DNA of 64,000 bases. Origin: Eledone cirrhosa. Its lineage: Eukaryota. Location of the stretch: assembly GCA_964016885.1 (NCBI GenBank), contig OZ024741.1, positions 67,890,001 through 67,954,000 on the forward strand. The letters run 5' to 3'. The notes below the pieces were generated by a model. That model did not search any database, was not told where the DNA came from, and saw only the letters and a program-made list of their open reading frames with translations. The position numbers and the translations under genes were made by a program. Below are positions 9,569 to 62,432 of the stretch, piece after piece (within the stretch, counting starts at the first letter, position 1; each line of letters starts with the position of its first letter).

Positions 9569-9630
9569 AATGTTATTAAATAAATGGAAACTATATTTAT
9601 AAAACCATATTTATTTTATTATATATATAT

Positions 9631-9737
9631 TGCCATTCTGAGTTCAAATCCCGCCGAGGTTAACTTTACCTTTCATCCTTTCGGGGTCGATAAAATAAAG
9701 TACCAGTAATACACTTGTGCCGAACGTAGAAACAATT
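9631..9737 (+). mobile_element. 5'-truncated SINE with target-site duplication, inserted into a hammerhead motif
   Basis: It runs from the B-box to the tail. ATTATATATAT is present on both sides. Confidence 0.8.
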
Positions 9738-10078
9738 ATATATATTTCAAGGGTAACAAAAGACTTTGGTACGCTTTCTTCAGATAAAATAAAAAATTTG
9801 TTTTATAAATGTTGACATAGCCAAGGAAACATACCTTATCACTTGAATACTATCCAAGGAAAATTCAACTGATAAGGTATGTTTCCTTGGCTATGTCAAA
9901 ATTTATAAAACACACTTTGTATTTTATCTGATGAAAGCGTACCAAAGTTTTTGGTACCCTTGAAATAGAATAAATATGGTTTTATAAATATACTTTCAAT
10001 TTATTTAATATCATTGTATATATATATATAAAGAAGAAGAAGAAGAAGAAGAAGAAGAAGAAGAAGAAGAAGAAGAAG

Positions 10079-10109
<31 letters not shown>

Positions 10110-10164
10110 GTGCTGTATTTAGTGCACATAGATAATATTTGTAGTTCTGCTGCTGCTGCTGCTG

Positions 10165-10195
<31 letters not shown>

Positions 10196-10343
10196 TACTA
10201 GCACTACCCCTACCACTACTACTACCACTACTACTATTACTGCTACTACTACTACTACTACTACCACTTCTACGACTACTACTACTACTACCACTGCTGC
10301 TGTTGCTGCTATCTCTCTTTGTCTAACTATATATATAGATATA

Positions 10344-10382
<39 letters not shown>

Positions 10383-10462
10383 GGGGTAGTGCTAGTAGTA
10401 GTAGTAGTAGTAGCAGCAGCAGTAGAACTACAAATATTATCTATGTGCACTAAATACAGCAC
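10110..10462. repeat. Inverted repeat with unique outer arms and (ACT)n/(TAG)n inner arms
   Basis: gtgctgtatttagtgcacatagataatatttgtagttct at about 10110 has its reverse complement ending near 10461. Confidence 0.85.
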
Positions 10463-11448
10463 ACAAAGGAAAGAGGTTGGACAGAATTGGGAGAGCGTCG
10501 GACAAAAGGCCAATGCGTTAATGGTTCTGTATCATTCGGCTTTGAGTTGAAATCCCGACAAGGTCAGGTTGTCTTATCATTATTCTGGGATTGATAAAAT
10601 GAAGTATTAGTCAAATAAAGGAGTTGATTTTGCTGGCCTTGTGCTTAAATTAGAAATTTATAGTTACATAACAAATACCCATACGCACACACATACACAT
10701 ACATGTATTCATATACGATTATAAGTTTGTATAGGCAGAGTGCGTATGTTCATGCGTGTAGTGGGTGTCACATGTCAGTAAAATAACACCACACGTTTTC
10801 GGCTTAATCACGTATTGAACACTTTACAAGGTGCACTTAGATGAAATGAGAATGCGTGCACTCATTTTCGCACGTATATAATGTGATAATATACGTGTGG
10901 CAATAAATGTTTGTGTGTTTCATATATGTGCGTGAGAAGGCACGTGGCTTATAGACTGGCGTGCTAGATTCACGATCGAAAGGTCATGAGTTCGACTCCT
11001 GAACTGGACGGCACGTTGTGTCCTCTAGATTATATGTTACGTACACCGAGGAATGGGTTGGAGAGTGGTTTCCTTACAACTTCATTGGCGTGAAATCTTC
11101 CACAAAACTATTTTGTCCAGGTGTGTGCATTGGAAGGTTGCCAACCTAAGGTGAATCATGACATTATCAAAAGGAACCTACTTCTTCTTCTTCTTCTTCT
11201 TCTTCTTTATATATATATACAATGATATTAAATAAATTGAAAGTATATTTATAAAACCATATTTATTCTATTTCAAAGGTACCAAAAACTTTGGTACGCT
11301 TTCATCAGATAAAATACAAAGTGTGTTTTTATAAATTTTGAGATAAGCCAAGGAAAACATACCTTATCAGTTGAATTTTCCTTGGATAGTATTCAAGTGA
11401 TAAGGTATGTTTCCTTGGCTATGTCAACATTTATAAAACACACCTTTG

Positions 11449-11510
11449 TATTTTATCTGATGAAAGCGTACCAAAGTTATTGGTACCCTTGAAATATATA
11501 TAATAGAATA
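11449..11510 (+). ncRNA. Type-I hammerhead ribozyme motif, intact core
   Basis: Stem I tattttat/atagaata; CUGAUGA at 11457-11463; stem II aagcgtacca/tggtaccctt; GAAA at 11491-11494; self-complementary stem III ATATATAT; predicted cleavage after AUA (11502). Confidence 0.72.
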
Positions 11511-11798
11511 AATATGGTTTTATAAATATACTTTCCATTTATTTAATATCATTGAATATTTACTCCAGAAAGCTGTCGAGTGCTCTGAAATCAGTTATAA
11601 GCATTTATATTTATTGAATTTCCAACAAATTAAATATCCCTTCTACTTATATATATAAGTAGAAGGGGTATTTAATTTGTTGGAAATCCGACATATATAA
11701 ATATAAATGTTTATAACTGATTTAGAGTACTCAACAGTTTCTTGAGTAAATATTCAATGATATTAAATAAATGGAAACTATATTTATAAAACCATATT

Positions 11799-11861
11799 TA
11801 TTTTATTATATATATTTCAAGTGTACCAAAAGACTTTGGTACGCTCTCTTCAGATAAAATA
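11799..11861 (-). ncRNA. Type-I hammerhead ribozyme motif (inverted copy)
   Basis: The reverse complement reads tattttat CTGAAGA gagcgtacca aagtcttt tggtacactt GAAA tatatata ataaaata. Confidence 0.65.
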
Positions 11862-11942
11862 CAAAATTTTTCTATCCAGAGAATATCCAACTGATAAGCT
11901 ATGATTTTCCTGGATATGACTATATTCATAAAACAAATTTTG

Positions 11943-12005
11943 TATTTTATCTGAAGAAAGCGTACCAAAGTCTTTTGGTACCCTTGAAATATATATAATA
12001 AAATA
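11943..12005 (+). ncRNA. Type-I hammerhead ribozyme motif, intact core
   Basis: Perfect 8-bp stem I tattttat/ataaaata; CUGAAGA at 11951-11957; stem II aagcgtacca/tggtaccctt; GAAA at 11986-11989; stem III ATATATAT; predicted cleavage after AUA (11997). Confidence 0.75.
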
Positions 12006-12064
12006 AATATGGTTTATAAATATAGTTTCCATTTATTTAATATCATTGTATATATATGTATATA

Positions 12065-19936: not shown

Positions 19937-20114
19937 TAGAACACTGGAAAGTAATATCCGTAGTGGTAGAGCAAACAGTCCATGTGATGAGTTTGGTAGA
20001 AGTAGTAACACAACAGTTAATTCACCATACCGAGAACAATTGTTAACAGACCAGTCAGTCACTGTGTATTATTGAAAATAGCATATATTTTCACCAGCTC
20101 TGACAGTTTGGCAG

Positions 20115-20178
20115 GGAAACAGTGACCTGTACTGATGAAGGGTGATACCCAGAAACATTAGTGTCTGCAGTTCTGTTC
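20115..20178 (+). ncRNA. Type-I hammerhead ribozyme motif
   Basis: ctgta CTGATGA a gggt-gat-accc a GAAA ca-ttag-tg TC tgcag. Stem I is ctgta/tgcag, extended by aacag/ctgtt. Stem III is ACA/TGT. The GUC triplet is at 20163-20165. Confidence 0.65.
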
Positions 20179-20340
20179 GCATGCCAACATAAGAGCAAGA
20201 ATGAAGTGTTCATTCTCCCGACGTGGCTAAATGAATCGAATGTTATTATTAATATTCGAAAAACTCAGATTACATATATATATATATATAAAATGTTAAA
20301 AAAATAATGAATAAAACAATGAAACAGTTCCTTATATTAA

Positions 20341-32671: not shown

Positions 32672-32734
32672 GATAAACTGCTGTCGAAAATTGACGAACG
32701 GGACCTGGAGACAGCTATTAAAGAAGAAGAAGAA
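32672..32734 (+). CDS. Internal 63-nt coding exon of the RING-finger gene (DKLLSKIDERDLETAIKEEEE)
   Basis: The acceptor is tttcttctgttctgtttatAG and the donor is a perfect GTAAGT at 32735. The exon is 21 codons, phase 0/0, and joins in frame to give ...KEEEE|CVICLG, an acidic run before the first RING cysteine. The implied intron is 32735-62117. Confidence 0.75.
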
Positions 32735-33399
32735 GTAAGTAATCCAAATATAATGAATTAAATCTCACAAATTACGTATTTATTTGTTTGTTTGTTTTGT
32801 GTTAACTCGTACAAAATTGCTTCTATTCTACCTGGGGAATTGTATTAGAACGTTTATCAGCTCCGCCGCCACAGATCCGGTGTTTTTACACTGTCATCTA
32901 AAAATATGAAATAGTTAACACTTGTTTACTTACCACTACAAACGATACAAGAGAGCATCTAAGCGAATGCTCGACCTAGAAGAAATATCACCCGGGTCTC
33001 CCTTAAATTCTATACCATTATAAAAAAAATGGAGGAACACGTTAGAAATATAGTTCTAGATATACATAAGTAACGGGATAGTTATGGCTGGGGCACCTTT
33101 GATTATGGATCTGTTCGATCAGGGATGAAATACTCAAACGACCCAACAAGGGACCCTGTGTATGATCCCACGACCCACAAGAAATAGCTGCTATAGAAGA
33201 CAATGAGAGCGGCTCTACGTAATGCAGGATGTGCTAGAAATAGTAACAAATTCTTCTTCCAATCACATCCGCATGTCTTAAAAAAAGGAAAGACACATTG
33301 ATCAAAATAGTTTCTGATAAAAAAAACAAAATCACATTTGTTTGCTACAAGGTTGTGTTTTAGTATTAGGTTGGATATTAATGAAGCTAGAGGTTGAGC

Positions 33400-34379
33400 T
33401 TATTGTGTTTGTGTGTCTTCTTTTTATATTTGCCGCTTGGGTGCATATATTGTTATTTAGGGTCAATTTTGTCAGACAGTTGTTAGAACTGTTGTTGTTG
33501 GGGATGTCGTAGTGTTGCAGTAAGGGATTGTTTTGGGTATAGTTTTGTTAGTTGCCTACGCTTTAAAGTTGTTCTAAAGATTTCAAGCTTCATGATGGTA
33601 GAGTAGAAGAGTTTGAGTGTGCGTATTGTAAGGATTTTGTAATATTTATGGGATTGGGGAATGTTCTTCATTATAATTTTAGTTTAAATCTAGGTTCCAT
33701 ATGGATGGTTATACTAGAGATAAGTTCTTGATTAGCTTCATTTCACTAAAGTGGTACTGTTGACTCCTAAATGTTCATGTATTTCGGGTGAGTTTAGCTC
33801 TATTAATTTCTGTCTCACTGACATCGTTTTGGGTTCTGAAGGAGTGTCTTGGTGCTTCCTTAACGTTTCTTGGTGCGTAACTGCAGTTTTTCTAGGCATG
33901 GAATTGTTAAATAAACTGCTAATATTGGTCTACCTACTTCTGGTTGTTCTTCCAATGTAACGCACCGATTGTAGATTTATGGTAACCTCAGTGTCATTGG
34001 AGTAAGTCATTATAGTCTTGTCATTAGTCCGGCGTTCTTGTTATCATTCCGTGTTTCCTTGTATTGTTTGTGTATTTGTTGCTGCATCTGTATTATTTGT
34101 ATAAGTTCCTTGATTCAGTGGTTATTTTTGGTCCAAATAACTTAGTATATGATGCGTATTTATGCAATTCACGTGCACCCGGTATGAATTGAATTTTGCT
34201 TTTGTAACAGGTCCATCTAAATGCTTCATTATAATAGCCCGTATACTCACTGCAAATAGCTTCGTTTGCTGAGAGTCGGGAAATTCTTAATGATACACCC
34301 TTTACAATTGAGTTGATATGTATGTGAATAAGATGCATTCATATCTCTCTCTCTCTATATATATATTTATTTATATACG

Positions 34380-34470
<91 letters not shown>

Positions 34471-34492
34471 TATATATATATATATATATATA

Positions 34493-34563
<71 letters not shown>

Positions 34564-34753
34564 TATATATATATATACTTATACATATCAACTAAATTGT
34601 AAAGGGTATATTATTAAGAAATTCCCGACTCTCAGCAAACGAGGCTATTTTCTATGAGTATACGGGCTATTATAATGAAGCATTTAGATGGACCTGTTAC
34701 AAAAGCAAAATTCAATTCATGCCGGGTGCACGTGAATTGCATAAATACGCATC
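33400..34753 (-). mobile_element. Degenerate Penelope-like element remnant with about 170-bp inverted terminal duplication
   Basis: The minus strand gives L*YNHPYG...NIPQSHKYYKILTIRTLKLFYS, which resembles the Penelope RT/GIY-YIG linker (recalled as WFNPPY...HFPxxHKyhKIfNRnTvKlSYS). 34150-34324 and 34583-34753 are inverted repeats around a (TA)n tract. Confidence 0.55.
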
Positions 34754-48140: not shown

Positions 48141-50495
48141 ATTGTTATTGTTCTTTGAGTCTCAGTCATTGATGTTAGTTAACTGGAAAGTTTGTTGAAA
48201 TGAATATCAAGCCACTACCTGCAGCCTCAGATATTCAGGACGTATCGGAGGGTTCTTGCTGTTCCCAGCAAGCATGCCTTTTGAAGCGTTCCAAAAAGCG
48301 TGAAGGGGCCAATTTTCTTTAACCATCCCTGGAAACTTTTTGAGATAGTACCTAGTGCGCCTATGACAATCGGGACCACTTTGACTTCATGGCAGTTCCA
48401 AATCGTTTTTACCTCCCACTTTAAGTCCTGGTATCGGTTAATTTTCTCCCTCTCCTTCTCTTGCACTCTCGTGTCGAATGGGCAGGCCACATCCACAATC
48501 AGGCACGATCTTTTTTCTTTGTCCACAACCACCAGGTCAGGTCTATTGTGTTCCAGTTTCTTGTCCGTCTGTATCCTAAAATCCCACAGCACCTTCACCT
48601 GATCGTTTTCTATCACCGACTCTGGCTTATGCTCATACCACTTCTCAGAATGTGGTAAATTGTTTACTTTGCATAGGTGCCAGTGGATCACCCTGCCCAT
48701 CACATCATGTCTCCAGTCCTTATAGTGAGTCTGGGCTAGGTGTTTACACTCGGATACAATGTGAGCCACAGTCTCCTCTCTCTCTCCACAGATCATGCAC
48801 AGTGGGCTATCCTCCTCCTTGTAAATATGGTGTTTCAACCACTTCGTTTTGAGGGCCTGCTCTTGCGCAGCCATTAACATTCCTTCTGTAGCATTTTTAA
48901 GGTCTCCTCTTTTCAACCAGTTCCATGTCTGTGGATCTCTGAATTCAGTTTTCTCAAAGAAGGTACTATGAAGGGATTTTTCCTGAAGGCTGCTCTTTCT
49001 CCTTGATGTTATTTCCTCCTTGGACATCCCCTGGTCTATTGTCCTCTCCTTGAGTACAGTTATGAGCATTCGCTCCTTACTATCAGTCACGTATTTGTGT
49101 AGGTTGTTTTTCTCCATCTGAACACAGTTCTCTATGCTGATAAGACTTCTTCCACCTTCAGATCTCCCTAAGTAGAGTCTATCGACATCACTCCTCTTGT
49201 GGAACATGTTGTAGATAGTCAATAGCTTCCTAGTCTTCCTATCCATTTCTTTTTGTTCAGCAACATTCCATTTCAGAATTCCCGCACTGTACCTAATAAT
49301 AGACACAGCTCGGGAATTTACTGCACTTATGGCATTCCTACTGTTCAGATGTGACTTTAATACGCTCCTTACTCTCCGAATGTATTCAGATCTTATCAAT
49401 TCCTTCATTTTTTTGTTCTTGATGTCATCAGCCTCCAGAACACCCAAATACTTGTATCCTTCTTCAATGTCAATTTCCTTTATCATCTCACCTGTTTGTA
49501 CCTGGATTCCGTTGCTTCTGCTCAATTTACCCGTCTTCATCACAAGGACTCCACACTTACTAAATCCAAATTGCATACATATATCATTGCTGAAAATACG
49601 GACAGCGTCAACAAGCAGATTCAACTCCTTCTCACTCTTCCCAAAGAGCTTAAGATCGTCCATGAAGAGGAGGTGATTGATGGTAAGCCCTCCCTTTCCC
49701 AACCTGTATCCTGCTCTCACTTTTCGCAGTATACTGGTCAGGGGCATCAGAGCAAGGACAAACAACAGAGGGGACAGACTATCTCCCTGGAAGATACCTC
49801 TCTTGATCTTCACGCTTCCCAAGGATTCTCCAGCTGATGTTAACTCTGTTTCCCAGGACTTCATACTTTTGCCCAACAACTGTCTGATGTTATCTGCCAC
49901 CCTGAAGATCTCCAGGCTTTTGGTGATCCAAGAATGAGGCACCATGTCAAATGCCTTTTTGTATCTATCCATCCCATGGCAAGACCAGTGTGTCTCCTCT
50001 TGCAATTCCTCATTACCATCTTATCAATAAGTAACTGGTCCTTTGTACCACGGGACTTCTTTCGGCATCCTTTCTGTTCGTCCGGTAACAAGTTGTTTGT
50101 GTGGAGGTGATGGTAGATTTCCTCAGACATAATGCTTGTCAACAGTTTCCACATTACGGACAGACATGTGATAGGTCTATAGTTGGTAACATCATTACCC
50201 TTGATTCGGTCTTTCATTATCAGAACTGTGGTACCTTTTGTCAACCACTCTGGTACCTCACCTGACATCAAGCAGTCATTGAACATGGTTGTCAGTTTCG
50301 GGTGGAGGGATGTTATATTTTTAATCCAATACCCCTGCACACCATCTGGGCCTGGTGATCTCCAGTGGGTTAGTTTTTTGGCCTGCCCCTTAAGAGTTTC
50401 AACTGTGATACTCAAATCAGTTTGTTGGTGTGCCTGTTCACTAATCTCCTTCTGTACTGTCTCAATCCACACTGCCTGGTCATTATGTTTAACAT
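48141..50495 (-). mobile_element. R4/Dong-clade non-LTR retrotransposon copy A, 5'-truncated, one frameshift
   Basis: ORF pieces 49861-50472 and 48227-50005 encode RT (NYRPITCL, FQGDSLSPLLF, HLLFMDDLK), a CCHC finger (CMICGEREETVAHIVSEC), RHD and a restriction-like endonuclease (RPDLVV...IVDVACP...EKINRYQDL). A 1-bp deletion near 49963 relative to copy B breaks the frame. (TTA)n flanks both ends. Confidence 0.92.
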
Positions 50496-50730
50496 TATTA
50501 TTATTATTATTATTGAATGCTATGGTTGACGGAGGCTCGGCTCTGTAAGGTATTGTAAATTTTGAACGCTATAATAATTGTAAATTGTTTAAAACTTTAA
50601 CGAACTTGTAGACAAAAACACCCTCCTCCTCGTGAGAAGGGTCTTTCTGTCCGTTATTTGGCCCTTCGGGGTTAAATAACTGCTTATTGGGGTTTTGTGC
50701 CCAATATTTATTTTAAACAAAAAAAACAAC

Positions 50731-52824
50731 ATGGCTACGAAAAAGAATTTTCATACGTCACTCCCACTCATTCCGTCTTCTTCTTCCTCAATCATCACTA
50801 CAGCAGAGAGAAGATTGTCTCTCTCCCTCCCTTCTTTAAATGTGTCTCTCTCCCTCCCTTCTCTTTCGCAAGCGACGACAGAAAAGAAAAGTCTCGTGCA
50901 GAGCGTGCAAGATTTCTCCACGACGACAACAACGACGAAACAGGTGTGCGGGAAATACGAAAACCCATTTCATTCGTCTGACGTCAGGAATAATAGCAGT
51001 AGCAGCCGTAATAACAACAGCAACAGTGACAATGAAAACAACAGTAGCAGCCGCAACAGCATCACCAGCAGCATAAATAACAACAGCATTAGCAGCAGCA
51101 CACCAACAACAACCACAGCAACAGCGGCGGAGGCAGTAGTCGTAGTACCTGCAGCAATAACAAAAGTAACAGCAGCTCTGACGACGACAACAACAACAGC
51201 AGCAAAGAAAAACCAATCTCGTTTGCAGGTATCGCGAAGAACCTGGAAACAATCCTCATAACAAATGAGGAATTAGAGGAAGCGAAGAAGATGGTGACAA
51301 AGACTGGACACCGAGCAATCTGCAAGGCAGCGGGAAAATTTTTCGAAACCCAACAGCACTGTACGGTCACGTACCGTACAGTAAGTACAAAATCCCGTAG
51401 GGTTGAAAGAGCCACAGAGGCTCAAATACAAAAAGCCTTGGGGTCTGTGTGGCAGCGGAAAACGCACATCACCCGAGGCAAAAAATATGCCACCGTAGAC
51501 GTACTTTTTGCCACACCCCAGGAGGCAAAGGCTCAATCCGTAGTGACCCTAAGGAGCGAGGAAATGGTGTTGGTGCCCTCCTACTGCGGGCAAAAAATTG
51601 TGAGGGTCAAACTGACCCACGTCCCCCCCCGGGATGGCCCCTTCTTAGCTGGCCGCGTCTGTCCTCGTCGGAATCGAGGACAAAACAACTGTACTGCAAG
51701 TACAGAAAAAAGTAAGAGAAGATTGGGTCGGCACCTCCATTGAGATGTTAATCCAAACCAACCAGGAGTGCATCGAAGCTATCCCGGATGTGATAGACTT
51801 CGATAACGGCACTCAACTGCCCATAAGTGTTGAGTGCAAACGCCCGAAATGCTTTTGCTGTGGATCGAAGACTCACCTCAGGGCCTTCTGCAACGAGAAG
51901 ACCCTGAGAAAGGAGAAAACCCCCCTCCTTCCGAAACCGGCTCCACGGCTACCAGCAACAGGACAAGCGGCAACCAGGAACGATAGGTCCGTGGCACCCA
52001 TACCCACGGAAATCAAAAACAGCAGCAGCAGTGGAAATATTAACAACAACAACAGCAATACCAAATGCAGCTGCAACAGAGACTCCAGTGCAAACATCAC
52101 CAACAACAACAAGTGAAAGAGTGGAGCTGGTACCCCTCCCCGACCTCACAGAATCAGACATGGAGTGTGAGGTGGGAGAGGGATGGCAAAAGGTCGTAAG
52201 AAGGCACAAACGCAGAAGCAGCGCATCGTCGCCTTTGAAAAGGGAGGAAAGAAATAAGAAAAGGGTAAAGTCTACTGCAAAGAGACTCACACAGCAACAC
52301 CACCAACACCATCACCACCCACACTAGCACCACCATCACCACCGGCGAAAACCCCACCGCCAACAACACCTTCAACGCCACCACCACAAGCACCAACATC
52401 GCAAACACAACAACAAAACACACACACCCAGCAACAACGACAAGAAAATAGCAGAACCACACCCCACCCCCAGAAAAACAAATGCATGGCAATAAATACA
52501 CACAACAAGAAACTAATGACTTACATAATTGAACACACAGACATTTCACAACAGGACTACATAATACCAGCACCAATCAAAACGCCAACTAACATAAGAC
52601 TGCTAAAAATAGCACAGAAACAATACACAAACATTAAAACGAAATTCCCCAACGCAGTTGGTGATTTCAGGGACCTAGGAGGAACTATCAATCGAAGAGT
52701 ATATTCGGACATACTCATAGAAGAGCCGACAACCAGCGGAAGGGACGCTTCAACAGTCCCTTCACCAGACGATCAAGTGAAAAGGGATGTAAAAACCATC
52801 CCTCCTCTACCAAAAGTACGGTAA
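50731..52824 (+). pseudogene. Tx1 ORF1 (gag-like nucleic-acid-binding protein), disrupted by several frameshifts
   Basis: ATG at 50731 (MATKKNF). Fragments at 51291-51743, 51745-52116 (CFCCGSKTHLRAFC, a CX2CX4HX4C knuckle), 52031-52327 (GWQKVVRRHKRR) and 52486-52824 lie in different frames. The stop is 35 nt before the ORF2 ATG. Confidence 0.75.
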
Positions 52825-52859
52825 GTGGTCTTTCCCATCTTTTCCACTCTATTTTAAAC

Positions 52860-55800
52860 ATGACCTCACTCAGAATAGACAGCATAAATGTGCGTGGCTT
52901 GGGGTCGTCATGGAAGCAGGGTCACCTGCTCAACGACCTCAGGTCACTAAACATAGATGTAGTGGCCATCAGCGAGACCAGAATCTCCAAAGCACGGGCC
53001 TTCGCACCGATCTTCGGCGGCTACGATGTGTACGCATCTCCCAGCCGTCGTGGATCGGGGGGAGGAGTTGCTGTGCTTTTTCGGAGAGGTTTGGATCTCG
53101 CCATACGGTCCATCTTCCTGGACCCAGAGGGTAAGCTGGTGGTGCTGGACGTGACCAGCGGAGACGGGCAAGCTTTCAGGCTAGTGGCCGTCTATGCCCC
53201 GACAGGAGCAGGGCGGCCTGATTTCTTCCGGCGTCTGGAGACCTTTCTTGGAACGTCCCGCTCTTTAGTGTTAGTGGGCGACTGGAACGGGATCTTAGAT
53301 GCACGCTGGGACTGTGTGGGATTAGCGGATAGGGGTGGAGGGTGCAAGAGCCTCACCAACCTGCTCAGGCATTTTGAACTGTCTGACAGGTACCGATTGG
53401 ATTTCCCGAATGTGCCAATGTGGACTTGGAAAAATCGCATAGGGTCATCCAGATCATATCTAGATAGAGTATTTTGTAGGGAAATAGATAGGTCTAGCAT
53501 AGGCTGTCCACAATTCAAGATAGTCAGCTACACGGACCACAAATTCGTGATCTGTGTGCTTGACTTAGATAGGTTTCATAGACGAGGACCCGGCTACTGG
53601 AAGCTAAACGCGTCCTTACCAGCGCGCAAGGCCTACAGAGACCGGATTAGCAAACTAGTTAAGCGGGCGTTGACGGGGGCCATCGTCAACAACAAGTGGT
53701 GGTTTGCTCTGAAAAGAGCGATTAGAATAGAATCGATCAGGTTTAGTAAGGCTTTAGCAATAGAGAAAAATAGAGCAGAGGAGAACTAGTTAGAAAATTA
53801 GACGAGGCGCTTAGCAAAGGCATTGCGACCGACGTGCTTGCGGCGAAATTGGCCCTTGACCAATTGTTCAATGCAAAGCACGAAGGCTGCGTTGTCAGAG
53901 CAAGGGTGCGTGCTCTCAGACACGAGGGAACGAAAGCCGTTCAATGGGCCCGAGTGGCGGAGGCGCGTCGTGGCAACAAAGCCACGATCCGGTCTTTGGT
54001 GGACCACGACGGGCGCATGCTACTCGATCCCGGGCAAATGTGTGAAGCTTTTCAGCGACATTTCGCTCAGCTGTTCGGGGGCAGCGGTGGGCCGGGTCGA
54101 GGGATGGACTTTAGTATCTACCTCGACGGACTGCCGCGGCTCTCGGCCACTGAGGCGAAGTGTTGCGAAAAGCCGATAACAGCCGTTGAAGGAAGGGAGG
54201 CAATGACTGGCTGCATAAGGGGTAAATCGCCTGGTTTTGATGGTCTGCCCTATGAACTTTACGTACAGATGCCAGACTTGTTCGGAGGCCTCTTGGCGGA
54301 CGTCTTCTGCAACTGGCAACAGAACGGGAGAATTCCCGGTTCTGTGAGCCGAGGAGCGGTGGCACTGCTGAGAAAGGATCCGAACAAGGGGGATAACATA
54401 GAAAATTTCCGGCCCATAACTCTGCTAAACACAGAGTTTAAGATTTTGGCCAAGGTGCTAGCAAAGAGGTTGGCGCTTGTCGTTGGTGGTCTGGTGGGAG
54501 AGGCGCAGACATGCGCCATTCCCGACAGATCCATCCACGACAACCTCCACCTCATGCGATACATCGTAGAGAGGGTAGCTAGGGAACCTGGCACGGGTGG
54601 GTCCTTGATCAATTTAGATCAGTCGAAAGCTTTCGATAGGGTCGACCATCGTTACCTAGCGGCAGTCCTGAGGGCGGCTGGCTTTGGGCCCGTCTTCAGA
54701 GGCTGGATCGCTGCCATGCACAGCGACATCTGCTCTGTGGTGAGAGTGAACGGTCACCTTTCGGAACCGTTCAACATCATGCGCTCGGTCCGCCAAGGAT
54801 GTCCCCTCTCGTCCCTCTTGTACGTATTGACTCTCGAGCCATTACTGCACAAACTGGAGACGTTGAGGGGCGTCCCGCGTGAACTAGGATGCGGAAGATC
54901 CGTGTCAGCATATGCGGACGATGTCACCGTAGTGGTGTCGAACGCCAAACACATCGAGGCGATCGGCACTACACTAAGAGAATACGAAGCGGTTACAAGA
55001 GCAATGATCAACCAGTTAAAGTCACTGGGCCTGCAGCTCGGCACCTGGAGAGGCAGGTCCATGCCGTCCAACAGCGTCGTCGGACGCTGGACGGACGGAC
55101 CGGTTCAGTTGCTAGGGGTCTGGTTCGGTCCGGACCTCCAGACGGACAAAAACTGGGACGAGGTGACGAGCAGGGTGGCTTCTCTCACCCAGAAATGGGC
55201 GGAGAGGAAGCTATCCCTGAAAGGTCGAGCGGAGGTGGCTAACGCGTACATCGCGTCTGTCATCTGCTACCGCCTGACCGTCGTACCTTGTCCTAAGCCT
55301 CGCCTGACTGCGCTGGAGCGTTTGCTCTTTCGCTTTTTGTGGAAGGGACGTGCTCCGATGGTCAGGCGGTCCATCTGTTGTCAACACCCGCTACTTGGAG
55401 GGCTGGGCAGGCCGTGGCTGATGATGCGCAGGCACGCGCTCAGGCTACGACATCTCCACCTCTTCCTCGACGGTGATCAGGTGTGGTCGCCGTTTGCTAG
55501 ACGCGTATTTCCCCAGCTTGTTTCCTTGACGGAGCTGCAGTCCTGGGTCAAGCGAAGACCGAGAGGGAGCGCCTGGAGATTGGAATGTCTTCAGGCGCTC
55601 ACAGCCCTCGACCAATCGGGCAATGTGATCGGTGGAAACTCCACCTCGGCGTTCTATAGAGGATTAGTGGAGGGGAAGAGCGACGACGTACTTGGGGAAA
55701 CTCTAGGCGTCGACGAAAATCAACTAGCCAATCTCTTCGGAAGAACTTTCGGGCCAGGGCCTATGGACAACTTCCAGAAATCTCTGGCCTGGCAGTGCTA

Positions 55801-56278
55801 CCGAGGAGCCTTGCCAGTTCGGGATAAACTCTACAGGCATGGAGGTGCCGTCAGCCGGGCATGTCCGAGATGCGCGCAGGGCGACGAAACCGTCCTGCAC
55901 GCACTCGTCCAGTGTCCGAAAATTGCTGACTTGTGGGTTTATGTCGAACACCTGCTGTCGCGTTTAGGACGGATCCGGCTATCATCTGAGTCCATCGTGA
56001 GGATTGCCCCGCCCTCCTCCTTTAGCCGGGAAGGGCAGGCAGTTTTTATCTGCCTGGTGGCCATGGTGAAAGAGATAGTATGGTGGACACGTTTGAAAGG
56101 GCTGAAGACGAGCACTTACCTCTTCGGCGATGCTCTGATTGACTTTTTCAAATTTCATTTGAAAAGGAAAATCAGAGTAGAGAGGGAAGTGCTCTCTTCC
56201 CAGCATTTTGTTGAAAGATGGGTGAGAGAAGCAAGAATGGCCCGAGTGAATGGGCCTACTCTGAGTATATATCTGTAA
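52860..56278 (+). pseudogene. Tx1 ORF2 (APE endonuclease + reverse transcriptase) with a single frameshift near 53780
   Basis: 52860-53789 has APE motifs (SINVRGL, VAISET, VYAP, LVGDWN, SYLDRVF, TDHK, GYWKLN). 53834-56278 has KSPGFDGLP, NFRPITLLN, LDQSKAFDRVDH, VRQGCPLS, YADD and CPRC...ETVLHALVQC. The second frame is already open from about 53783 (ELVRKLDEAL). Confidence 0.9.
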
Positions 56279-56540: not shown

Positions 56541-59500
56541 ATTGTTATTGTTATTCCTTGAATCTCAGTCATTGATGTTGGTTAACTGGAAAGTCCGTTG
56601 GATTGAATATCAAGCCACTACCTGCAGCCTCAGATATTCAGGACGTATCGGAGGGTTCTTGCTGTTCCAAGCAAGCATGCCTTTTGAAGCGTTCCAAAAA
56701 GCGTGAAGGGGCCGATTTTCTTCAACCATCCCTGGAAAACTTTGGAGATAGTCCCCAGTGCGCCTATGACAATCGGGATCACTTTGACTTCATGGCAGTT
56801 CCAAATCCTTTTCACCTCCCACTTTAGGTCCTGGTATCGGTTAATTTTCTCCCTCTCCTTCTCTTGCACTCTCGTGTCGAACGGGCAGGCCACATCCACA
56901 ATCAGGCACGATCTTTTTTCTTTGTCCACAACCACCAGGTCAGGTCTATTGTGTTCCAGTTTTTTGTCCGTCTGTATCCTAAAATCCCACAGCACCTTCA
57001 CCTGACTGTTCTCCATCACCGCCTCTGGCCTATGCTCATACCATTTCTCAGAATGTGGTAGATTGTTTACTTTGCACAGGTGCCAGTGGATCACCCTGCC
57101 CATCACATCGTGTCTCCAGCCCTTATAGTGGGTCTGGGCTAGGTGTTTACACTCGGACACAATGTGAGCCACAGTCTCCTCTCTCTCTCCACAGATCCTG
57201 CACAGTGGGCTAGCCTCCTCCTTGTAGATATGGTGTTTCAACCACTTCGTTTTGAGCGCCTGCTCCTGCGCAGCCATTAGCATTCCTTCTGTAGCCTTTT
57301 TGAGGTCTCCTCTTCTCAACCAGTTCCATGTCTGTGGATCTCTAAATTCAGTTTTCTCAAAGAAGGTACTATGAAGGGATTTTCCCTTAAGGCTGCTCTT
57401 CCTCCTTGATGTTATTTCCTCCTTGGACATCCCCTGGCCTACTGTCCCCTCCTTCAGTACAGTTCTGAGCATTGGCTCCTTACTATAGGTCACGTATTTG
57501 TATAGGTTGTTTTTCTCCATCTGAACACAGTCCTCTATGCTGATAAGATCTCTTCCACCCTCAGATCTCCTTAGGTAGAGTCTATCGACATCACTCCTCT
57601 TGTGGAACATGTTGTAGATAGTCAATAGCTTCCTAGTCTTCCTATCCATTTCTTTTTGTTCAGCAACATTCCATCTCAGAATTCCCGCACTGTACCTAAT
57701 AATAGACACAGCTCGGGAATTTACTGCGCTTATGGCATTTCTGCTGTTCAGATGTGACTTCAATACGCTCCTTACTCTCCGAATGTATTCAGTTCTTAAC
57801 AATTCCTTCATTTTTTTGTTCTTTATGCCATCAGCCTCCAGAACGCCCAAATACTTGTATCCTTCCTCAGAGTCAATTTCCTTTATCATCTCACCTGTTG
57901 GTATCTGGATCCCGTTACTTCTGCTCAACCTACCCCTCTTCATCACAATGACTCCACATTTACCAATACCAAACTGCATACATATATCACTGCTGAAAAT
58001 ACGGACAGTGTCAACAAGCACATCCAACTCCTTCTCACTTTTCCCGAAGCGCTTAAGATCGTCCATGAAGAGGAGGTGATTGATGGTAAGCTCTCCCCTT
58101 CCCAACTTGTATCCTGCTCTCACTTTTCGCAGCATAATGGTCAAGGGCATCAGGGCAAGGACAAACAACAGAGGGGACAGGCTATCTCCCTGGAAGATAC
58201 CTCTCTTGATCTTCACGCTTCCCAAGGATACTCCAGTTGATGTCAACTCTGTCTCCCAGGACCCCATACTCCTGCCCAGCAACTGTCTGATGTTATCTGC
58301 CACCCTGAAGATCTCCAGGTTTTTGGTGATCCAGGAATGAGGCACCATGTCAAATGCCTTTCTGTAGTCTATCCATCCCATGGCAAGATCAGTGTGTCTC
58401 CTCCTGCAATTCCCCATTACCATCTTATCAATAAGCAACTGGTCCTTTGTACCACGTGACTTCTTTCGGCATCCTTTCTGTTCGTCCGGTAACAAGTTGT
58501 TTGTGTGGAGGTGATGGTAGATTTCCTCAGACACAATGCTCGTCAACAGTTTCCACATTACGGGCAGACATGTGATAGGTCTATAGTTGGTAACATCATT
58601 ACCCTTGATTCGGTCTTTCATTATCAGAACTGTGGCACCCTTTGTCAACCACTCTGGCACCTCACCCGACACCAAGCAGTCATTGAACATGGCCGTCAGC
58701 TTCGGGTGGAGGGATGTTAAATGTTTAATCCAATACCCCTGCACACCATCTGGGCCTGGTGATTTCCAGTTGGTTAGTTTTTTGGCTTGCCCCTTAAGAG
58801 TTTCAACTGTGATACTCAAATCAGTCTGTTGTTGTGCCTGCTCACCGATCTCCCTCTGTACTGTCTCAATCCACCCTGCCTGGGCATTGTGTCTAACATC
58901 CTGCTCCCATATTCCTCTCCAGAATGTTTTAGCTTGTTCCGCCCCAGGGATCAAGTCGTTGCCTCTTTCTTTCCCCCCAAGCTGTCCAAACAGCATCTTC
59001 TGGTTGTTGTCGAACATGCGGTTCTGTTTATACTGACTGACTCTGTTCTCGTATCGCCTGATTTTTGCACTCTTTGCTACAATGCGTTGCTTCAATTCCT
59101 CTATGATAATATTTAGCTTTTTACTCCTAGTTTTGTATTTTATTTCCAGTCTATTTTTAGTGCCTATGTTTTTTAGTGTCCCATTCAGTAGTGACTCAAG
59201 CTTTCCTATGTCATTTCTCATTTCCCCGATTTGCCCACTCAGTCGCTTCTTCCACCACGGCTCTGCTCTTTCTTGTCTGTTGTTTCCTCTCGCTTTTATA
59301 CCAAGTAGTTTCCTCACCGTATATGCTGTTGCTTTGAGGATATTGTTGCACTGGTGAAGGCTCCTCGCCTCAAGGTATGGGATGACTTTGTTTACCTTAG
59401 CTGTTGTTTCTTTTAACTTTTTCCTGTCTACAAATCTTAGGTTCATAGGTCTCCCACTATCATTGTTCAATTCATCTACCACTAAATTTAGGATGTCAAC

Positions 59501-59786
59501 CGAATCTTGTCCTAGCCCGTCAGCATTCATCTCCTCAGTGGCCGTATCTCTGTTCCAGGTATTATTTATCTCAGTATTCAGATCATTGTCTGCTTCGGGT
59601 GGTTCCTCCGTTCTCAGGACCTCCTCACCTTCATTTCCCATCGGCTCGCTTGTCTGGCATACTACACCCGCCATCTCCAAGCCATTCTCTCTGCTCAGTT
59701 CCTCCAGTTCCAGCTCGCTTATCCACCCATTAGTTCTTATTACCCGAGCCTGCCCGGCCAATTTTTGTTCATCTAATTTAAATAAA

Positions 59787-59787
<1 letters not shown>
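56541..59787 (-). mobile_element. R4/Dong-clade non-LTR retrotransposon copy B, slightly 5'-truncated
   Basis: It is colinear with copy A and shares the same short 3' UTR. The 5' end breaks off just upstream of EQKLAGQARVIRTNGW and runs into (TTA)n at 59788-59843. Confidence 0.93.
56630..59761 (-). CDS. R4/Dong polyprotein (RT + CCHC + restriction-like endonuclease), uninterrupted 1043-aa frame lacking its native N-terminus
   Basis: Motifs include WKSPGPDGVQGYW, GWIDYRKAFDMVPHSW, GIFQGDSLSPLLF, HLLFMDDLK, YKYLGV, CRICGEREETVAHIVSEC, RHD and RPDLVV. The track start is TTG, not ATG. Confidence 0.88.
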   Translation of the reverse strand: MAGQARVIRTNGWISELELEELSRENGLEMAGVVCQTSEPMGNEGEEVLRTEEPPEADNDLNTEINNTWNRDTATEEMNADGLGQDSVDILNLVVDELNNDSGRPMNLRFVDRKKLKETTAKVNKVIPYLEARSLHQCNNILKATAYTVRKLLGIKARGNNRQERAEPWWKKRLSGQIGEMRNDIGKLESLLNGTLKNIGTKNRLEIKYKTRSKKLNIIIEELKQRIVAKSAKIRRYENRVSQYKQNRMFDNNQKMLFGQLGGKERGNDLIPGAEQAKTFWRGIWEQDVRHNAQAGWIETVQREIGEQAQQQTDLSITVETLKGQAKKLTNWKSPGPDGVQGYWIKHLTSLHPKLTAMFNDCLVSGEVPEWLTKGATVLIMKDRIKGNDVTNYRPITCLPVMWKLLTSIVSEEIYHHLHTNNLLPDEQKGCRKKSRGTKDQLLIDKMVMGNCRRRHTDLAMGWIDYRKAFDMVPHSWITKNLEIFRVADNIRQLLGRSMGSWETELTSTGVSLGSVKIKRGIFQGDSLSPLLFVLALMPLTIMLRKVRAGYKLGRGELTINHLLFMDDLKRFGKSEKELDVLVDTVRIFSSDICMQFGIGKCGVIVMKRGRLSRSNGIQIPTGEMIKEIDSEEGYKYLGVLEADGIKNKKMKELLRTEYIRRVRSVLKSHLNSRNAISAVNSRAVSIIRYSAGILRWNVAEQKEMDRKTRKLLTIYNMFHKRSDVDRLYLRRSEGGRDLISIEDCVQMEKNNLYKYVTYSKEPMLRTVLKEGTVGQGMSKEEITSRRKSSLKGKSLHSTFFEKTEFRDPQTWNWLRRGDLKKATEGMLMAAQEQALKTKWLKHHIYKEEASPLCRICGEREETVAHIVSECKHLAQTHYKGWRHDVMGRVIHWHLCKVNNLPHSEKWYEHRPEAVMENSQVKVLWDFRIQTDKKLEHNRPDLVVVDKEKRSCLIVDVACPFDTRVQEKEREKINRYQDLKWEVKRIWNCHEVKVIPIVIGALGTISKVFQGWLKKIGPFTLFGTLQKACLLGTARTLRYVLNI

Positions 59788-59843
<56 letters not shown>

Positions 59844-59980
59844 GTTAACCTCGGCGATTAAGCCCTTGCCATTCTGAGTTCGAATCCTTTCATCCTTACG
59901 GGGTCAATAAAATAAAGTACCGGTAATGAACTGGTTAATTGCTGGCCTTGTGCCAATAAGTAGAAACAATTATTATTATT
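59844..59980 (+). mobile_element. Rearranged, truncated SINE inserted in the (TTA)n tract next to Dong copy B
   Basis: A short inverted piece (gttaacctcggcg) precedes cccttgccattctgagttcgaatcc, the core and the tail agaaacaattattattatt. Confidence 0.75.
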
Positions 59981-61427: not shown

Positions 61428-62117
61428 GCTGTTACTGTTGTTGCTATCCTCAGCATTATCACCATCGTCATTGTCATCATATACATTAATCCAGTATCAA
61501 CAAACTTGTACACCTATGGATACTATATCATTACAAAATAGGAAACAACTCTTGAAGAAACAAGAGTTATACAACCTTCTCACAATGTTTGACAACATTA
61601 TTGCAGATATCTGAATCTATGCACTTCTATCAAATTTGTGTACATTATACAAACATTGGACTATATCACGACAAGCGTGTTTGGCTTTATGCTGAAATAG
61701 GACTATATCTTGCCACAATATATTTGACTTTACCTTCATATATGACTACAACCATCATATAATCTGTAGTCAGGTGAGATTGTTAAACACTTCAGCATCT
61801 TATGTATTTGCCCTTGCTCTAATATACCACTATATCCTTTCTCATAACCTGTAGTCTGTGCCAAAGTGATACTAGAACAATTGTGGCCATGAGCATATGT
61901 GGATTATAAACTTCCTCCAAAGTTTAAAATGATTCTATATACATTCTCAAAATGTCTGACATGTTATTAATATGAGTCTTTATTCTTCCGCAAAAAAATG
62001 TTGTCCTTCGGGTAATATGAAAGATAATAATTATTCTTGTTTGTTGTTATTATTGTTTATATTATCTGACCAGTATTTATTCACTTCTTAATTGATTTTT
62101 TTTATTGTTTTTTTCAG

Positions 62118-62432
62118 TGTGTAATATGTTTGGGCGCAAAAGCAACGATGCAAACTTTCCCTTGTGGACATCGAGTTGTATGCCGGAAGTGCTTCATAAA
62201 AACCATCCAGGTGGCTGTGTCGCAACGATGCTTGCCCCTAAGGTGTGTCATTTGTCGAACGCGCATACTGAAATTGAGACAGAACCCCAAACCCCATTCA
62301 GACAAGCGAGAAGCAAGTGGTGGGAGCAAACATGAAAAGAGTGACGGCAAATCATCGTCACATAAAGATAGGAAAAGTGGTAAATCTGCGCTGGAGAAGG
62401 CAGTTAAATCGGAAGGAAAATCAAAATATTGA
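62118..62432 (+). CDS. Terminal coding exon of a small C3HC4 RING-finger protein (putative E3 ubiquitin ligase)
   Basis: A long polypyrimidine tract ends in TTTTCAG at 62117. The phase-0 frame reads CVICLGAKATMQTFPCGHRVVCRKCFIKTIQVAVSQRCLPLRCVICRTRI, i.e. C-x2-C-x11-C-x-H-x3-C-x2-C-x17-C-x2-C (RING-HC with a PCGH motif). A K/S/E-rich tail follows, then TGA at 62430-62432. There is an AATAAA near 62579. Confidence 0.88.
   Translation, partial: CVICLGAKATMQTFPCGHRVVCRKCFIKTIQVAVSQRCLPLRCVICRTRILKLRQNPKPHSDKREASGGSKHEKSDGKSSSHKDRKSGKSALEKAVKSEGKSKY

Follow-up and report, generated by a model that had tools for sequence, protein, structure and literature searches.

Genomic setting and anatomy of the array

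The window analysed here is a stretch of 64,000 nucleotides, and the feature under study is an array of repeat arms at 9569..12048, which were lettered A to F from left to right. Protein homology placed coding exons of a plus-strand RING-finger gene on both sides of the array: the upstream coding exon or exons about 175 kb upstream of the window (G000:C2:67715020-67715187), the next coding exon downstream of the array at 32672..32737 (+), and a RING-finger (C3HC4) coding exon of the same gene at 62115..62426 (+). Because exons of one plus-strand gene flank the array, we infer that it lies in an intron of about 207 kb, in agreement with an earlier note on this DNA, which had proposed a probable intron from the letters of the window. 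This small RING-finger gene is spread over about 240 kb. The window also holds long frames of the reverse transcriptase type of non-LTR retrotransposons at 48227-50568, 52665-56278 and 56630-59857, one of which runs for 1,075 residues uninterrupted.

A motif scan of the window for CUGA(U/A)GA-stem II-GAAA returned 9928, 11457 and 11951 on the plus strand and 9783, 11308 and 11853 on the minus strand, which are the six hammerhead positions that had been reported, while 30 second-order Markov simulations gave a chance expectation of 0.07 motifs per window on average and of 1 at most. The results showed that D (11457+), E (11853-) and F (11951+) are complete, with an 8-bp stem I, a self-complementary ATATATAT stem III, as had been claimed for three copies, and all of the core CUGANGA...GAAA...UH. 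The layout of these intact motifs is UAUUUUAU, CUGA(U/A)GA, a long stem II with one C.C mismatch at its fourth position, and GAAA, followed by the palindrome AUAUAUAU, the cut base A and AUA(G/A)AAUA, and the predicted cuts after 11502 (D) and 11997 (F) are the same as those expected earlier. The cleavage triplet AUA is atypical, and the stem II base pair is A-U in all window copies but E (G.U) rather than the canonical G10.1-C11.1. Another register of stem II, with an unpaired base after A9, was rejected on reading the sequence, as its pairing was poorer. No Rfam hammerhead family matched at gathering score in the whole window, none was among the 64 matches at E<=10, and the miRNA-family matches below gathering score were generic hairpins.

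Each motif sits within a pLTR piece of 180-270 nt, whose limits are given below relative to the cut site, taken as 0. Arm A (9569..9848, minus strand, core 9783) runs from -115 to about +52, and its stem III is split by a very-high-copy insertion of about 106 nt at 9629..9734, which is flanked by an 11-bp direct repeat (a target duplication) and parts the core from the 3' strand of stem I. One motif is split as claimed, and the insertion at 9629-9734 is putatively a SINE. Arm B (9849..10015, plus strand, core 9928) runs from -128 to about +52, and arm C (11221..11390, minus strand, core 11308) is a short arm with the same limits; the two lack the same 9 nt of stem III, just as the note had it, so that three of the six motifs (A, B and C) are broken. 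Arm B is followed by the rest of a local inverted duplication (10016..10190, plus strand), and about 1.1 kb of host DNA (10060-11178) interrupts the array between A/B and C-F. Arm D (11391..11647, plus strand, core 11457) is a long, intact arm from -115 to +145 with a tail of about 94 nt; arm E (11656..11865, minus strand, core 11853) is a long, intact arm from -59 to +145 of the CUGAAGA subfamily; and arm F (11872..12048, plus strand, core 11951) is a short, intact arm from -127 to about +52, after which comes (TA)n. D and E meet tail to tail across a short TA tract.

A seventh, unrelated hammerhead of another family was found at 20054-20228 (plus strand, core 20132), in which stem I is long and bulged, stem II has A.A at its base and the cut is at GUC. 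Its repeat of about 175 bp has 1,408 candidates in the genome, and no similarity to the element's ORF (see below) was seen within 1.5 kb at 10 loci.

Source of the repeat

An exact 25-mer of the repeat matched the genome 1,526 times (control, 0), and a 191-base repeat query gave 2,083 genome candidates, 40 of which were scored. A reverse transcriptase-like frame adjoined the repeat at 1 of 30 inspected loci and, when used as a query itself, gave 106 matches among 105 scored candidates. We then collected 10 kb around 40 ORF-anchored loci, comprising the 29 next best and 11 lower-ranked ones that were taken mostly for their long open frames. A sense copy of the repeat lay downstream of the ORF at 34 of the 40 loci, starting 1,086-1,600 nt after the anchor at 30 of them, and another lay just upstream of the ATG at 9 of the 40; inverted repeat pieces upstream of the ORF were frequent. 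The window arms match natural pLTR copies at 86-94%. Judged from these sequences, an autonomous Penelope-like element of this genome has the repeat as its pLTR, so that the Penelope link made earlier is borne out by a repeat flanking an ORF of the RT/GIY-YIG type elsewhere in the genome, and the autonomous Penelope that was to be searched for exists. What is not supported is the notion of an ORF-less ribozyme repeat acting as a unit, as the arms are truncated pLTR ends with locus-specific junctions and not head-to-tail monomers.

The element is about 3.7-3.8 kb long with a long AT-rich 3' UTR and inserts into (TA)n. Its natural frames reach 743 residues and carry RWR, DKT (KSDKTNN), YRDD, CNCRIKSNC, VYK...YVG and CKLC...CRH, with no cysteine pair (CCHH) between GIY and YIG in the natural ORFs, and in the copies examined RWK is absent, its place being taken by RWR or RWC. 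Pfam recognised neither an RT nor a GIY-YIG family in three of three long ORFs, and of 31 protein homologues at 31-42% identity all but one were unnamed, the one name being unrelated. Because the ORF motifs fit the clade definition of Craig et al. 2021 (PMC8557442), the element very likely belongs to the Hydra clade of Penelope, an assignment based on motifs and not on a tree. As described in the available parts of that paper, Hydra-clade elements share with ours the C-terminal endonuclease, DKT, the CxCX5C linker, the lack of CCHH, the terminal CxxC and CxH, (TA)n targets, and a type-I hammerhead near the 3' end. According to the same parts, the clade differs in being generally shorter than 3 kb, in comparison to the 3.7-3.8 kb with long AT-rich 3' UTR here, and in having RWK; its listed hammerheads are all AC...GU in stem III, in comparison to AUAU(A/G)UAU with an AUA triplet here, where stem II also keeps an internal mismatch. 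The paper also describes a Hydra family from Octopus, Hydra-1_Obim, and since protein and hammerhead differ from it by eye, our element appears to be another family. Judged by its repeats, the genome is probably that of a cephalopod-like animal.

A decayed ORF remnant in the window at 33498-34730 is weakly similar to the element protein, and has an inverted piece across a (TA)n tract.

Conservation of the hammerhead fold

Among 107 distinct genomic copies the most variable core position was N7 (93 U, 9 A, 3 G, 2 C), and the other core positions were conserved in 101-107 of the 107, figures that are inflated by the filter, which admitted only rows with 3 or fewer mismatches over core and stem I. 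Subject to that filter, the conservation of the catalytic core among genomic copies, on which the earlier proposal had been made to depend, is present. The base of stem II was A-U in 63 copies, G.U in 24, U.U in 10 and G-C in 7, and a query built on the G-C variant found only 7 matches. The Hydra hammerheads in File S2 of Craig et al. (PMC8557442), as far as listed there, have U.U, G.U, G-C and A-U at this position, which is the same range.

In 22 natural copies picked to span the subfamilies, 96.4% of cells were paired, in comparison to 36-56% in slid controls. Six of the nine stem II pairs change on both sides, although this two-sided count was not above shuffles, 150 of 500 of which reached it, and cells here are sequences and not events. 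Stem I showed one-sided G.U changes only, and the two outer pairs of stem III were invariant and thus uninformative. A diverged family with 5,342 exact 22-mer matches keeps core and stems with different flanks, and diverged pLTR-like families (L136-L172) show a compensated stem II and the same TCACTACC head. Since stem II shows covariation and most of the variation in the core falls at N7, the aligned copies indicate that the fold is under selection at the level of the family. The claim of a type-I hammerhead with palindromic stem III is upheld by the core, stem I and stem III seen in D, E and F and by the covariation of stem II.

As to activity, cleavage is reported for an axolotl motif whose stem II has U.U at its base (the portion available of PMC7229834), metazoan Penelope motifs are described as of low activity and dimer-dependent (Cervera and de la Pena, PMC4209133, in part), and in the sections available of Frangieh et al. 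2024 (PMC11167929) the hammerhead needs protein. The hammerhead of the intact element is likely a weak, dimer- or protein-assisted ribozyme that is kept by selection.

Insertion anatomy across the genome

The 3' end of a copy is at one of two fixed points, about +52 or +145, beyond which lies (TA)n, the BLAST alignments overrunning these ends into TA to +60 and +154. Head-to-head pairs were found at 12 of 27 non-overlapping motif-anchored loci, and 11 of 13 junctions joined a long and a short arm. In a further 30 tail-anchored loci, at least 4 of which overlap the motif-anchored set, 29 copies stop at +145, an inverted short partner is present at 15, the cut site is crossed in 23, and 11 start at -114 to -137; a start within 8 nt of the cut site was found at none of the 30. 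Because no copy starts at the cut site, the template of reverse transcription was likely RNA uncut by the hammerhead. This agrees with the internal priming reported by Frangieh et al. (PMC11167929), where, in the text available, two internal RT start sites define the tail and unprocessed RNA is the main substrate.

A census of 90 loci gave 50 distinct junctions: 34 joined a long to a short arm, 1 joined two long arms, and 15 were of other types. Of the 34 long+short pairs, 19 have the short arm extending further 5', 11 have the long arm doing so, and in 4 the two are equal. In 14 of these pairs the outermost 5' end falls at -126 to -129, and in 3 it is beyond -129, with the reservation that long heads are favoured in a third of the census loci, since the query that picked them extended to about -112. 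The A of TCACT occupies position -128; this word is kept by the diverged family too, and it is initiator-like in rotifer pLTRs according to the part available of Arkhipova et al. 2013 (PMC3846280).

The two fixed 3' ends and the common 5' limit would be accounted for if the element RNA started at the initiator-like TCACT at -128 and the reverse transcriptase primed internally at +52 or +145 on RNA that the ribozyme had left uncut; the cDNA would run to the 5' end of the RNA and leave stumps of 180-270 nt, and two such products joined head to head would make one palindrome. Fold-back of a single cDNA could not produce 19 of the 34 pairs, where it is the short arm that reaches further 5' and the long arm that reaches further 3'. 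As a tentative scheme, which we rate as possible but rather doubtful, both nicked target strands would be extended on uncut RNA, one from +145 and one from +52, and the two cDNAs would then be joined head to head, possibly with the palindromic stem III holding the RNAs together; cutting might in that case not be the main role of the self-complementary stem III, which could keep two RNAs within a single insertion complex. Among the openly accessible papers searched, neither this family nor a count of double priming was found.

Alternatively, the palindrome as a whole could be the mobile unit, fixed in form and non-autonomous, with the Penelope enzyme copying all of it, given that palindromes are very common, that two junction types occur at two loci each, and that the partner of an arm is usually more similar to it than is the median of the other arms. 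We regard this as very unlikely, since junction coordinates vary among most of the 34 long+short pairs, the C/D and E/F junctions of the window are unlike, and the long+short asymmetry is what insertion of an autonomous element leaves. Recurrent junctions are few (L112/L195 and L204/L205, two loci each); recurrence at a 5'-end hot spot accounts for some common junctions, and re-mobilised palindromes or segmental duplication could have produced them as well.

In the 5' pLTR of a full element (L062) the tail stops exactly at the start of TATAAATA, 54 nt before the ATG, which could be due to microhomology of TA with the target or to a second promoter.

Assembly of the array in the window

With high confidence we read the array as six truncated, mirror-arranged pLTR pieces, likely laid down by two (TA)n insertions and a local inverted duplication, with hammerheads that are predicted to be inactive. 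C/D is a short+long and E/F a long+short pair, the pairs stand tail to tail at the TA tract and represent two subfamilies, and their junctions differ from each other. A/B is short+short, unlike the usual long+short rule. The body of B differs from C at 1 of 106 positions, and the two have the stem III deletion in common; the head of A shows 0 differences from D in 48 positions, and its body differs from F at 3 and from D at 9 of 114. Beyond these arms the duplication takes in (TA)n(AAG)n and then host DNA, of which the single-copy stretch 10392-10464 is repeated in inverted orientation. By sequence comparison, then, A/B derives from C and from a hybrid of D and F, copied along with host DNA. 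The copies do differ by substitutions, as the earlier note stated, and this was seen in the arm alignments.

A/B would have arisen either through a reverse transcriptase that started at the short end of F on intron RNA, or by a DNA-level fold-back with two deletions, and the single-copy spacer at 10305-10327 fits an RNA or a DNA origin. Splicing was considered for the deletion of about 710 nt in the duplicated arm and was rejected on reading the sequence, which offers no GT...AG pair on either strand, and no A-to-G signature of RNA editing was seen by eye in the alignment of that arm. Hammerhead ligation at the cut site as the origin of arm A is ruled out because the switch from D to F sits upstream of the core.

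Long palindromes are prone to fold-back chimeras, an N gap lies about 700 nt downstream of the array, and no contig from three sequencing runs spans it, which raises the question of whether the array is in part an assembly artefact from chimeric fold-back reads. Arms made in that way would be near-identical, whereas those of the array carry private substitutions and indels, A's insertion with its target duplication is missing from D and F, and the left arm has two internal deletions; an artefact is thus most improbable. The assembled contigs of the three runs, all from one sample, covered the repeats deeply and three unique stretches shallowly and bridged no array junction, and they are therefore uninformative on expression or array structure.

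Predicted folding and the proposed circle

The stretch 11200-12060 folds as chained hairpins with a minimum free energy (MFE) of -481 kcal/mol, in line with the chained hairpins noted earlier; this and the following folding results are equilibrium predictions. Forcing a hammerhead costs +62 kcal/mol over the hairpin fold for a monomer and +124.7 for the D/F dimer, and in prefixes read through from 5' to 3' the pair probability of stems I and II of D, F and E was 0.000. In an RNA starting at D's head, E was still predicted to bind D or F, and a motif was left free only when the RNA started inside F, where stem II had a probability of 0.99 and stem I one of 0.05. When the host intron is read through, each antisense arm would precede its sense arm, with long hairpins as the result. 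Because the head-to-head geometry puts the antisense arm first on either strand, the hammerheads of the array are predicted to be silent, and by these models they are probably inactive at this locus. The suggestion that pairing between inverted arms could silence cleavage is thereby favoured, the plus-strand motifs being predicted as fully paired with antisense arms.

The companion suggestion was that the plus-strand hammerheads excise a rod-like RNA of 495 nt, which is circularised and re-inserted in the manner of an ORF-less retrozyme. Two intact motifs do lie 495 nt apart on the same strand of the inferred plus-strand intron, the excised piece is predicted to be stable as a circle (-275.6 kcal/mol), and an isolated two-strand hammerhead dimer of D is about as good as the best cofold (-27.6 in comparison to -27.7 kcal/mol). 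These predictions are outweighed in context, since the intact motifs follow antisense arms and the D/F dimer costs about 125 kcal/mol, so that on the folding models the 495-nt circle appears unlikely: excision of such a piece conflicts with a stem I/II probability of 0.000 on read-through and with +124.7 kcal/mol for the dimer, and D and F are never predicted to be free together. The arrangement argues the same way. The ORF-less state, the pLTR-related type-I hammerheads and the unit size resemble non-LTR retrozymes (Cervera and de la Pena 2020, PMC7229834; Li et al. 2026), but these are, in the parts of both papers available, head-to-tail tandem monomers with expressed circles, whereas the array is inverted with variable truncation points. 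Its units stand head to head and tail to tail in place of the head-to-tail order of non-LTR retrozymes (PMC7229834; bioRxiv 10.64898/2026.07.22.740005, as available), and all adjacent units are inverted. Moreover, D and F come from different subfamilies, no unit like D-E-F recurs among 27 loci, a tail-to-tail junction having been seen at 0 of them. A retrozyme-like element is accordingly held to be highly improbable here, and the array is likely ordinary transposon debris and no new circular-RNA element.

Elsewhere in the genome, a head-to-tail repeat of 467 bp in 2.6 copies, 99% identical, was found at L178:1760-2992 (G000:C4 near 65,632,500-65,633,700), with one hammerhead core per unit between (TA)n tracts. 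As a retrozyme candidate it is better than the array.

Relation to known insertions and implications

Inverted copies of this general kind are known. Penelope-13_HM has a 5'-truncated inverted copy with the motif on both strands (PMC8557442, in the part available), and the insertions of Arkhipova 2013 (PMC3846280) and Frangieh 2024 (PMC11167929), as far as described in the available text, have inverted head-to-head pLTRs, a tail on one arm and solo pLTRs, as here. In comparison to the elements of these two papers, with a tail of 30-40 nt, the tail here is about 94 nt and lies upstream of the ATG, and the stumps here, unlike their insertions, are stacked and locally duplicated. The kind itself is known, and the Hydra-type family whose stump insertions are stacked here was not listed in the literature searched.

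In general, the analysis suggests that the array is a record of how a Hydra-type Penelope inserts: copies finish at either of two fixed 3' positions, their 5' limit coincides with an initiator-like site, a palindrome pairs a long arm with a short one, and the ribozyme cut is not the starting point of any copy. It also gives a caution, in that hammerhead pairs on both strands of such genomes should not be taken for circular-RNA cassettes. The record extends the in vitro result of internal priming by the lizard Poseidon element to another clade, and it is relevant to two open questions, the way in which the inverted repeats of Penelope arise and the function of the hammerhead. If double priming is true, it would be countable, as there are thousands of stumps in this genome.
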